Below are positions 44,501 to 47,356 of a stretch of 64,000 nucleotides of DNA, piece after piece. Positions within the stretch are counted from its first letter, which is position 1. Every line of letters starts with the position of its first letter. A program made the translations under genes and the position numbers. The notes under the pieces are model-generated. The model had not been told where the DNA came from and made no database searches. It saw only the letters and a list, made by a program, of their open reading frames with translations. Source of the stretch: a bacterium (GTDB taxonomy: Bacteria > Patescibacteriota > Minisyncoccia > UBA6257 > JAUSGH01); assembly GCA_030649055.1 (NCBI GenBank), contig JAUSGH010000003.1:354-64353 (forward strand), read 5' to 3'.

Positions 44501-45098
44501 GCGAAGTTTGACACCGCGGGCACCACGGCACAACTTTGTACAACTTCTTCAATAAACCTTTTTTCGCAATCTGCGCCATCACCCACCAAAGCGATTCCAC
44601 AAAATCATTCGCGTAGGTAATATACGGATGCTCGGAATCAATCCAAAAACCGATACGGTCACTGAACCGCTCCCATTCATTTTTATATTTCCAGATTGAC
44701 TCCTTTGCCCGCGCGTTAAACGCCGCGATACCAAACGTTTCAATCTCTTGTTTGTTTTTTAATCCAAGCGCTTTTTCCACCTCAATCTCAACGGGAAGAC
44801 CATGCGTGTCCCACCCCGCGCGCCGAGGAACATAAAACCCGCGCATGGTTTTGTAGCGCAGAATAATATCCTTAAACGTCCGCGTTTCCGCGTGCCCGAT
44901 GTGCGGCAAACCATTCGCCGTCGGCGGTCCTTCAAAAAACACGAAGTGTTTTTTACCCTGCCTGCCCGCCGAAGCCTTGGCGGAGGCGGGAGCCTGTCGA
45001 AGGGCTACCGATTTTTTGAAAATCTCATTCTCCGCCCAAAACTTAAGGACTTTCTCTTCCAACTCGGGCAGATTGAATTGCTTGAGACCTCTTAGCAT
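41559..45098 (-). CDS. ileS: isoleucyl-tRNA synthetase with an inserted histidine-phosphatase (PGAM-like) domain and in-frame repeat insertions
   Basis: [23 protein letters not shown] and KMSKS; [8 protein letters not shown]...VSHGD domain between the zinc knuckle and WFDSG; [18 protein letters not shown] insert. Confidence 0.88.
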   Translation of the reverse strand: [1179 protein letters not shown]

Positions 45099-45246
45099 AC
45101 TCTCTATCGTATACGGAAAATCTCAATTTTTCAAGAAAAAACCACAAAAGAATTTTGTGACTTTAGCTACAAGTTCTCCGAAAAAGAATAGGAGGTCTCG
45201 TCGAGACCTCCTCCAAGCTCCTAGAGAACGATAATTAGTGTTGGGT

Positions 45247-45564
45247 CTACGGAGCGATTCCGGTATCCCAATCGTAGGTTTTCGGACCATCTTCTCCTTC
45301 GCGCGCCTCGCGTACAAGCTTAAGATACTCCTTAGATTCGCCCAAGGTATCAATGACGTGCTTCTTGCCGTCAGCCCATGGGAAAGGACTTTTTCGCTGA
45401 ACAGTCGGGCATCCGGTCAACTCACGAACCATCTGATCAATCACCCACGCCTTGTGATGCTCTCCGTCGACCCCACCAGACTCTACGGCGATTTTTAAGG
45501 CCTTATCAATCCGAGCTTGCAGCGCCTCCTGATTTTCTTTCCCTTCAGGACTATTCTCAGTCAT
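45247..45564 (-). CDS. hypothetical protein
   Basis: gaggagg SD before MTENSPEG; TTGACT-N17-TATAAT promoter further upstream on the minus strand (about 45618..45646). Confidence 0.5.
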   Translation of the reverse strand: MTENSPEGKENQEALQARIDKALKIAVESGGVDGEHHKAWVIDQMVRELTGCPTVQRKSPFPWADGKKHVIDTLGESKEYLKLVREAREGEDGPKTYDWDTGIAP

Positions 45565-45763
45565 CGGCTTTACCTCCTCGTTTGGTTGTTGTTCTGGTGA
45601 TTTCATTACAAATTGAATTATAAAAAAGTCTTCACTTAAAGTCAATAGCTCGGCTTAAGCAGCCGCAACTCAATATCGTTCAGTTTTAACTGTAGAATTT
45701 CAATATGCCTTTTTCCATTCGCATTATTACCGAGCCAAATTCGCGTTATTCGCGATTACTCCC

Positions 45764-47356
45764 CTACATCTTCTCCGGCGCGCTCACGCCAAGCACGCGC
45801 AAGACATTTTCCAACACCATGCGCGCCGCCTCAACCAATTGCAATCGTTCAGTAACCACCGCGCCACTGGAGTCAATCACGCGTTCTTTCTCATAAAAGT
45901 CGTGGAATGCGCGTGCAAGATCCGTCGCGTACCGTGTCAGTCGATGTACTTCGTAATCCGCCGCGGTTTGCGCAATGACATCCGGAAACTCCGCCATTGT
46001 TTTAAGGAGTTTCAGCTCGCTTTCTTCCTTGAGCCCCGTTATGTTTGCTTCTTTGTTTCTTTGCTTCTTTGCTTTCTCCAAAACGCTCCCCGCCCGAACG
46101 TACGCGTACTGCACATAATATACCGGATTTTTCACCGAGCGCTCTTTCGCAAGGTCAAGATCAAAGTCCATGTGACTGCCGGCGGAGTTCATCAAAAAGA
46201 AAAACCGCGCGGCATCTGCCCCCACTTCCTCCAACAGCTCATCCATCGTCACAAACTCGCCCTTGCGTTTGGACATGCGCACCTCTTTACCGCCGGAAAC
46301 AAGCCGCACCAGCTGCGTGATAATAATCTTCAGTCGCTCCGGCGCAACACCAAGCGCTGCGACACCTTTTTTTATTTGCTCGGCGTAGCCGTGGTGATCC
46401 GCGCCCCAAATATCAATCGCAACGTCAAATTTACGCTTAAAAAGCTTATCGTAGTGATACGCGAGATCAGGAAGAAAATATGTGGGGGTATTATCTGACT
46501 TAATCAAAACTTTATCGCCAAACCAGACCGCGCCCTCTTTCCGCTCCACGAGTCCTTTCTGTTCTAAGAACGCAAGCATTTTTTCCAATTCGCCGCCGGC
46601 GCGCAAATTTTCTTCCTCCGAAAAGAACACGTCATATATAATTCCCGCTTTTTTTAATGACGCCTTGATAGATTTCAACAACAACGCAACCGCTTGTTTG
46701 CCGGTTTTGCCTTTCAATTCTTTGATGTATTCTCCTTTATAATATTCCTCTTTTTCCGGCAACTTCCCTTCGGCGGCTTGGATGCTTTCGCCCAACAGCC
46801 GCACTTGGTTACCGGCATCGTTCACGTAATACTCGCGTGTTACCTTGTGTCCCGCGCACTCTAAAACATTAGCAAGCACGTCACCCAAAAATCCTCCGCG
46901 TCCGTTCGCCATCGTCAAAGGGCCCGTCGGATTTGCCGAAACAAACTCAACGTTTATTTTTAGTCCCTGCCTGCCCGCCGAAGCCTTGGCGGAGGAGGGA
47001 GCCTGTCGAAGGGCTACCGCTCCATATTTTGCTTTTTGTTTTAACACCGCCAGAAGTTCCTCGCGAAGCACATCCGGCGCAAGTGTAAAATTGATAAATC
47101 CCGGCGCGGCAGCAACCACCTGCGTGAAAAACTTTCCTTTATCTTTCTCCGCTATTTCTTTTGCTAAACTTTCCGCAACCGCCATCGGCGGCATTTTTCG
47201 CTCTTTTGCCAATCGAAACGCAACGTTTGACGAATAATCGCCGAACTTCGCATCCGCGGTTTTCTCCAACGGCCAGTCGTTCCCAGTTAATTCCTTGAGA
47301 TGCTGTTGAATTTTGGTAAGCATGAAATAAAATTTATCTGTATAAATCGTGATCAT
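45764..47356 (-). CDS. argS: arginyl-tRNA synthetase
   Basis: ANPTGPL...YVNDAGNQ hallmark; carries the same 54-nt in-frame insert ([18 protein letters not shown]). Confidence 0.92.
   Translation of the reverse strand: [530 protein letters not shown]

Follow-up and report, generated by a model that had tools for sequence, protein, structure and literature searches.

Why do the isoleucyl- and arginyl-tRNA synthetase genes (ileS and argS) of a Patescibacteriota bacterium, a member of the candidate phyla radiation (CPR), carry nearly the same 54 nucleotides (nt) in frame just ahead of the class I HIGH region? We addressed this question in a 64,000-nt stretch of contig JAUSGH010000003.1 (assembly GCA_030649055.1), hereafter the window, and in related loci from other bacteria. 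Two independent hairpin-repeat families, each widespread in bacteria, make up the 54-mer as a second-order composite: a 24-nt core and, lodged within it where stem meets loop, a GC-rich hairpin of 30 nt, GCCTGCCCGCCGAAGCCTTGGCGGAGGMGG. The element belongs to the class of short hairpin repeats that includes repetitive extragenic palindromes (REP), the SRM repeats of Ssn nucleases and the Rickettsia palindromic elements (RPE). We favour, with a probability of roughly 60%, the reading that the core is a REP-like family whose copies bracket GIY-YIG nuclease genes in other genomes, in the NTS-ssnA-NTS arrangement of Ssn systems, and that it is nested here with the GC hairpin family.

The two copies of the 54-mer CCCTGCCTGCCCGCCGAAGCCTTGGCGGAGGCGGGAGCCTGTCGAAGGGCTACC (Table 1) are separated by a single C-to-A mismatch, and zero matches are expected in shuffled sequences. 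This agrees with an earlier note on this DNA, save that the ileS copy starts at 44956, one base past the 44955 given there. Translation of the open reading frames (ORFs) confirmed that both copies share a reading frame, giving VALRQAP[AS], in two minus-strand genes identified by homology, and the location directly N-terminal to the strand leading into the HIGH region likewise holds in IleRS and ArgRS. Both ORFs remain intact. In an AlphaFold model of ArgRS (mean predicted local distance difference test score, pLDDT, of 87.8), the insert sits in a predicted disordered loop, the sole long low-confidence one (residues 106-118, pLDDT <50), between helix 83-99 and strand 122-130, which is the first Rossmann strand. 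As separate observations on the two enzymes, the class I 'HIGH' position of ArgRS (residues 131-142) is without histidines, invariantly so in 22 of 22 aligned CPR ArgRS, and residues ~500-690 of IleRS form an inserted histidine-phosphatase domain, His_Phos_1 (RHGE...SHGD), found through precomputed Pfam annotations in nearly all listed Parcubacteria IleRS homologues.

That the 54-mer is not the single element the earlier note took it for became evident from its relatives. The GC unit of the window (GCCTGCCCGCCGAAGCCTTGGCGGAGG[C/A]GG) separates the 5' stem arm of the core from its loop in both synthetase genes. The closest relative, L001 (ArgRS 84% and IleRS 89% identical, gene order conserved), has a bare core at the equivalent ileS site and, in argS, a core with a different 30-nt GC-rich hairpin that enters the loop elsewhere, after TCGAC. 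Nesting at the IleRS site extends to Parcubacteria that are more distantly related: L252 holds two nested hairpins there, one at the junction of the window and one at that of L001, and L253 has a diverged GC unit whose junction is that of the window. Scanning metagenome contigs with CCGCCGAAGCCTTGGCGGAGG retrieved at least 120 loci for the GC unit, and none of 121 copies among the matches listed had a core within 40 nt. The GC unit is nested in a different hairpin in L142, and related copies occupy other positions of CPR ArgRS (PSSAKATAGK in P0008, RRSLGEGGG in P0089). The composite junction pattern TTGGCGGAGGNGGGAGCYTGTCGAAG had no match in metagenome_contigs, and the composite itself is therefore not a common repeat. 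Separately, two GC-unit copies (TCGCCRAGGCTTCGGCGG) were noticed at 5641 and 5969 of L017, inside the RNase P RNA gene (5600-6048) of an alphaproteobacterium, which suggests that this unit also occupies variable helices of structured RNAs.

The core reads NNNCT-GAGCYTGTCGA-AGNNN-TAC on the plus strand, with a stem of 4-5 bp (NNCT/AGNN), an 11-nt loop and a TAC tail, and GTA, stem, TCGACARGCTC, stem on the coding strand. The loop GAGCYTGTCGA is invariant; the stems of the window copies vary but stay complementary (GCCCT/AGGGC, GCGCT/AGCGC, TTCCT/AGGAA, TGGT/ACCA). There are 12 exact matches to GAGCYYGTCGAA in the window against 1.8 expected and, with a degenerate partner at 21927-21950, 13 core copies in 64 kb. 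All the shorter copies reported earlier were recovered, and an additional partner at 15731-15756 makes a third inverted pair. Five of the 13 copies are read as protein, four within ORFs and one that, as had been proposed, supplies the C-terminus of proS (ORF 21945..23204, ending in ...MVALRQAQRINIS before the stop codon; ...VALRQAQRINIS). All nine solo and composite copies share one orientation, and GTAG, GTAA or GTAT stands beside the stem of window copies. A tblastn search against the DNA of related loci found no orthologues of proS or of the TIGR00375/PHP-family ORF that holds another copy.

The hairpin character claimed for the element was upheld by fold prediction for an inverted pair and to a lesser degree for the single core: the pair at 41493-41557 is predicted as a long, strong DNA hairpin (-15.5 kcal/mol, z -5.6), a single core as a weak one (-4 kcal/mol, z about -1.3). 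A general model of the inverted pairs as one long hairpin was rejected, as the half-stems are mutually non-complementary in several pairs (41493-41557, L006); two local hairpins are for that reason favoured over a single long one. Resemblances by eye to hammerhead, T-arm and D-arm structures were also discarded, the conserved core nucleotides of these being absent. At gathering threshold, Rfam placed no family over the motif, either in the window or in 18 loci, a permissive scan returning chance miRNA-like matches only, and literature searches with the DNA motif and its peptide readings found nothing relevant.

Table 1. Features of the window bearing on the repeat families (positions in nt from the first letter of the window)
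Feature	Position	Strand	Description
IleRS ORF	41559..45098	minus	1179 aa; identity by homology
ArgRS ORF	45764..47356	minus	identity by homology
ileS composite	44956..45009	+ (gene minus)	5' arm CCCT 44956-44959; 30-nt GC hairpin 44960-44989; whole element encodes 18 residues
ileS composite, remainder	44990-45009	+	core loop GAGCCTGTCGA, 3' arm AGGG, CTACC
argS composite	46965..47018	+	architecture as in ileS; mismatch GGAGGAGGG vs GGAGGCGGG; encodes 18 residues
Inverted pair	15694..15756	.	between tpiA (15765..16463) and a DUF541/SIMPL gene; second half with compensated stem TGGT...ACCA
Inverted pair	21927..21985	.	degenerate copy 21927-21950 and intact copy 21958-21985; intact copy supplies proS C-terminus
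Inverted pair	41493..41557	.	directly downstream of ileS stop; half-stems differ, TTCCT/AGGAA vs GCGCT/AGCGC
Solo core	23226..23254	+	intergenic, on the upstream side of proS
Solo core	35826..35853	+	directly past the stop codon of trpS (plus strand)
Solo core	51261..51288	+	between smpB stop codon and 5' end of the tmRNA gene (50928-51241, minus)
Plain core, second ileS site	44395..44420	+	other frame, GSASTSSA; common to L001, P0124, P0125
Plain core, loop variant GAGCCCGTCGA	61752..61779	+	in TIGR00375/PHP-family ORF 60858..62228; read CSPSTGSGH
GIY-YIG ORF	3479..3769	+	96 aa, single-domain; protein family as in core-bracketed genes of other phyla
Octamer arrays, intergenic	28602-28633, 29023-29086, 30383-30465
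Octamer arrays, ileS	41927-41966, 42123-42154, 44142-44173
Octamer array, argS	46045-46076
Octamer arrays, ORF 54931..56724	54926-54957, 55832-55863

The earlier note had recognised no family for the repeat. A wider search showed that the family is neither unrecognisable nor private to the lineage: the core spans many phyla and brackets GIY-YIG genes there. Searching a collection that has a single genome for each species, the pattern CTGAGCYTGTCGAAGNNCTAC gave at least 120 loci. The matches listed fall in Proteobacteria, Bacteroidota, Actinobacteria, Chloroflexi, Acidobacteria, Eremiobacterota and several CPR groups, and many of them have an inverted copy close by; only six core matches lie on viral contigs. 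In a set of 126 unique copies from different phyla, pairing is kept at the two free positions of the stem in 96% and 94% of cases, with at least eight pair types, which is good evidence for a conserved hairpin; this set is uninformative on the GTAG/CTAC tag, since CTAC was fixed by the search pattern. One copy, near position 2530 of L112, lies between tRNA-like sequences, with a D-arm-like GCTCAGCTGGCAGAGCG upstream and a new tRNA start downstream.

Clustering of the ORFs in the core loci revealed a single recurrent neighbour among the matches listed, a single-domain GIY-YIG protein of 82-129 aa (Pfam PF01541, E 5e-13 to 2e-18), whose members have the GIY, YIG, R and E residues in common. A core copy lies no more than 50 nt away in nine of 15 such genes (14 from the loci and one from the window), with distances on the two sides of 6 and 15 nt in L041, 8 and 43 nt in L076, and 10 and 37 nt in L093. 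These three genes and those of L099 and L060 have the core on both sides, several in inverted orientation. Only eight of 2712 ORFs are bracketed by the core on both sides, and four of the eight cases are at GIY-YIG genes. Across 150 motif-adjacent ORFs, GIY-YIG is the sole recurring Pfam family (nine members, every other family at most two), and no transposase appears among the Pfam families listed for them. This arrangement is the one described for Ssn, site-specific GIY-YIG nucleases of ~94 aa that cut single-stranded DNA (ssDNA) adjoining hairpin repeats (NTS/SRM); these repeats flank the nucleases' own genes and abound in Neisseria, Rickettsia, Wolbachia and Sphingomonas (Chenal 2025, Nat Commun 16:2388, PMC11893778). 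From the gene context, we infer that an Ssn-type nuclease probably recognises the core in ssDNA.

Comparison with relatives further distinguished filled from empty sites. The core is missing at both synthetase sites of L124 and L125, the relatives next in closeness after L001, whose enzymes are ~75-80% identical, and the orthologues accordingly speak for a lineage-specific insert and not for ancient protein sequence. What the earlier note called an insertion is indeed an extra in-frame repeat, yet not a clean one: filled sites have 21-24 nt in place of 15-18 nt and are on balance 6 nt (2 aa) longer, and the target is not duplicated. Its likening to RPE is supported as regards behaviour, in that a hairpin repeat persists in frame and spares the ORFs. 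The empty IleRS site matches the core at 10 of 17 nt. Among 120 homologues, the ArgRS site is filled in the window and L001 only; the IleRS site is filled in 23 of 118 full-length Parcubacteria IleRS, decayed forms (VALRKTQG, LTLRQARG, VIFRQGRG) included, and L014 and L035 have identical DNA there. On a neighbour-joining tree built from the protein minus the site region, the 23 filled sequences fall into 19 groups with absence as the root state, an upper estimate because this tree is poorly resolved at ~55% identity. Occupancy of the IleRS site is clearly scattered across Parcubacteria. The second IleRS site (GSASTSSA) is filled in four sequences, and the IleRS of P0130 carries copies at two further sites. 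All 20 in-ORF copies in IleRS homologues are GTAG-first and use one of the two stop-free frames of that orientation.

A plausible course of events can be drawn for a REP-like core recognised by a GIY-YIG nuclease. The hairpin would form in DNA made single-stranded by replication, transcription or DNA uptake, and a cognate Ssn-type nuclease would bind it and cut nearby; repair, or short-patch recombination or conversion with other copies, would then spread and homogenise the repeat. Selection in a compact CPR genome would remove copies from ORFs unless they are read in one of the two frames that lack stops, both in the same orientation, and lie in surface loops that tolerate them. Class I synthetases may offer such a loop in the linker, rich in Lys and in A, that precedes their first Rossmann strand, and ileS and argS would be filled at equivalent positions because of this tolerant linker of A-rich Lys codons. 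The exposed core could in turn be where the 30-nt GC hairpin lands, with a preference for two junctions, one following TCGAC and the other following GGCTC. Near-identity of the ileS and argS composites might then stem from site-specific nesting in each core or from gene conversion between cores 2 kb apart. A bolder version, which we hold to be doubtful though worth stating, makes the 24-nt Ssn-recognised hairpin a site-specific, in-frame 'homing' micro-element that entered one IleRS loop many times independently across Parcubacteria and became a landing pad for 30-nt hairpins at two fixed junctions, the 15-nt motif marking one horizontally spreading nuclease/repeat pair.

Several results weigh against the Ssn-type reading. 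The published SRM pattern, HGTCWY...RNCYNB, has no match in the window (0.24 expected) and none on representative core copies, and we therefore treat the core as an undescribed specificity class, not as a recorded SRM. Its 15-nt motif is near-invariant across phyla, unlike typical species-specific REP or SRM repeats, and the weak predicted folding of single cores and the replacement of existing sequence at filled sites, described above, also count on this side. The neighbouring GIY-YIG proteins are placed by Pfam PF01541 alone, membership of cd10448 being a separate question. CPR loci L054 and L068 have GIY-YIG genes without tight core bracketing, and no core copy lies within 700 nt of the GIY-YIG ORF of the window. 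Upstream of that ORF stands instead another hairpin pair, CCGAGTC[A/T]AACTCGG (CCGAGTCWAACTCGG; 3377-3391 and 3410-3424), present nowhere else in the window, which may be the own repeat of this nuclease. With such a pair and no core beside the ORF, a nuclease of this genome that is cognate to the core stays putative. As an aside on the same region, the 3' end of a tRNA-Gly gene, CGACTCCCGTTACCCGCTCA (2347-2366), has a second copy at 2480-2499 and a degenerate one at 3769-3788. The repeats enclose AT-rich DNA with the GIY-YIG ORF and ORF 2632..3144, and the whole (2293-3790) has the look of a small element, or two, that integrated at the tRNA gene.

Three other explanations were considered. The core could be a classical GTAG-tagged REP or REPIN moved by a REP-associated tyrosine transposase (RAYT, an IS200/IS605-like HUH Y1 enzyme), as its GTA(G) head and CTAC tail beside a hairpin, the inverted dimers and the bias in strand orientation would suggest, and as GTAG REPs are known within genes, tRNA synthetase genes among them (PMC3733652). 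We judge this improbable: no transposase-like family recurs beside the motif among the matches listed, where GIY-YIG alone does, a stem of 4-5 bp with an invariant 11-nt loop contrasts with REPs, whose GC stems are long and whose loops are short, and the motif is identical across phyla, REPs being species-specific. An ancient Parcubacterial peptide of the S-L-K-x-R-E-G-K-K type in IleRS, made to resemble a repeat through repeated gene conversion of similar sequence, appears to us about equally unlikely. The partial match of empty sites to the core, with an L-[KR]-Q-x-x-G pattern, the small gain of 2 aa at filled sites and the intermediate peptides noted among the decayed forms would all fit it. 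However, filled-site DNA is near-identical between enzymes that are ~55-60% identical in protein, which is not expected of old coding sequence; the same 21-24 nt recur at many non-homologous sites, in other phyla too, and the restriction of the filled argS site to the window and L001 points the same way.

Least probable of all, and in our estimation very unlikely, is a functional RNA hairpin in mRNAs or untranslated regions, a cis-regulatory or processing signal of translation-related genes kept by selection and not by mobility. Compensatory covariation of the stem is what such an RNA would display, the window copies do cluster at ileS, argS, proS, trpS and smpB/tmRNA, distant Parcubacteria keep identical DNA at one IleRS site, and T/G pairs exceed C/A on the CTGAGC strand by 10 to 2. 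Yet the mRNA of in-ORF copies carries the opposite strand, where T/G pairs turn into C/A mismatches, and Rfam gave no match. Gene contexts are unrelated in many phyla, copies bracket the gene of a DNA nuclease, close relatives manage without the element, and the Ssn enzymes that have been characterised act on ssDNA, not RNA (PMC11893778).

How the Ssn-type reading relates to known repeats can be told from a few traits. With Ssn/SRM (PMC11893778), the core shares the nature of a short, hairpin-forming repeat that a genome carries many times, as singles and inverted dimers, across phyla, and the bracketing of a single-domain GIY-YIG gene (~85-130 aa) in inverted orientation, this being the case in other genomes and not around the unflanked GIY-YIG gene of the window. 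It departs from them in a stem of just 4-5 bp, the invariant 11-nt loop and a motif nearly identical across phyla; in-frame coding copies and nested composites, as found here, are not described in the available part of that paper. GTAG- and CGTC-REPs resemble it in the GTAG tag beside a stem-loop, the inverted dimers, the preference for gene 3' ends (Di Nocera et al. 2013, PMC3733652; Nunvar 2010, PMC2817692), the occasional intragenic sites, tRNA synthetase genes included, and the long-loop variants with an inner self-complementary segment (PMC3733652). They differ in that the core has a short stem, a conserved loop and a sequence common to several phyla and, against the extragenic location of REPs, more than a third of its window copies (five of 13) are read as protein. 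No RAYT association was found among the motif neighbours in the loci listed, a search of neighbourhoods and not of whole genomes. Miniature inverted-repeat transposable elements differ as well, since here there is no target-site duplication and 15-18 nt are replaced by 21-24 nt. The RPE attributed to Ogata and colleagues in 2000 are reportedly Rickettsia-specific, ~100-150 bp long, and placed in frame in essential genes, where they are said to be translated as surface segments that leave function intact. The likeness lies in a palindromic repeat in frame in protein genes, with intact ORFs and, in ArgRS, an insert predicted to be a disordered loop; by description only, RPE of ~100-150 bp in Rickettsia contrast with nested units of 24 and 30 nt (54 nt) in CPR, the core of which extends across phyla. 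In-frame palindromic repeats (RPE), REPs in tRNA synthetase genes (PMC3733652) and the pairing of Ssn with SRM (2025) were thus already known. Not found in the literature searched were this near-invariant cross-phylum motif, its presence in CPR, composites of two families with fixed junctions, and the recurrent occupancy of the IleRS loop.

Further repeats populate the window. A repeat with a period of 8 nt, TTGCTTTN (reverse complement AAAGCAAN), forms eleven arrays, some between genes and others in frame inside ORFs, where they encode K/Q/S/N-rich peptides; the same protein positions in other Parcubacteria hold different octamers (AAAGCTAN in L125, TCAAGTNT in L002) or, in P0008, TTYDLR-type peptides. 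A terminator-like hairpin, ACAGCCCGRGRGGT...ACCTCYCGGGCTGTTCACTTTTTT, follows successive plus-strand genes (38014-38073, 38848-38907, 39458-39517, 40198-40221), and a perfect 42-nt palindrome, AACTGCTTCCTAACTTCACGATCGTGAAGTTAGGAAGCAGTT, stands in identical form at 40265-40306 and 40946-40987, flanking ORF 40343..40927. A 51-nt direct repeat, TTTCCATTCGCATTATTACCGAGCCAAATTCGCGTTATTCGCGATTACTCC, is located just downstream of the argS stop (45712-45762) and recurs in intergenic DNA at 53759-53809 and 32991-33016.

Collectively, these data connect the unusual peptide that two essential enzymes carry with ssDNA nucleases of a class discovered only recently, and with the hairpin repeats of that class. 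If the Ssn-type reading is right, the Ssn/SRM class would extend to a motif that the published pattern misses, and to CPR bacteria, and such repeats can nest and, in loops of equivalent structure, become fixed in frame. Because it has been filled repeatedly, the IleRS loop would offer a concrete system for how repeats of the Ssn/SRM type move. Repeat-encoded peptides can explain many puzzling insertions, and they presumably resemble many of the spurious ORFs of metagenome annotations. Were the homing version to hold, a nested hierarchy of mobile hairpins would continually rewrite the surface loops of essential CPR enzymes.

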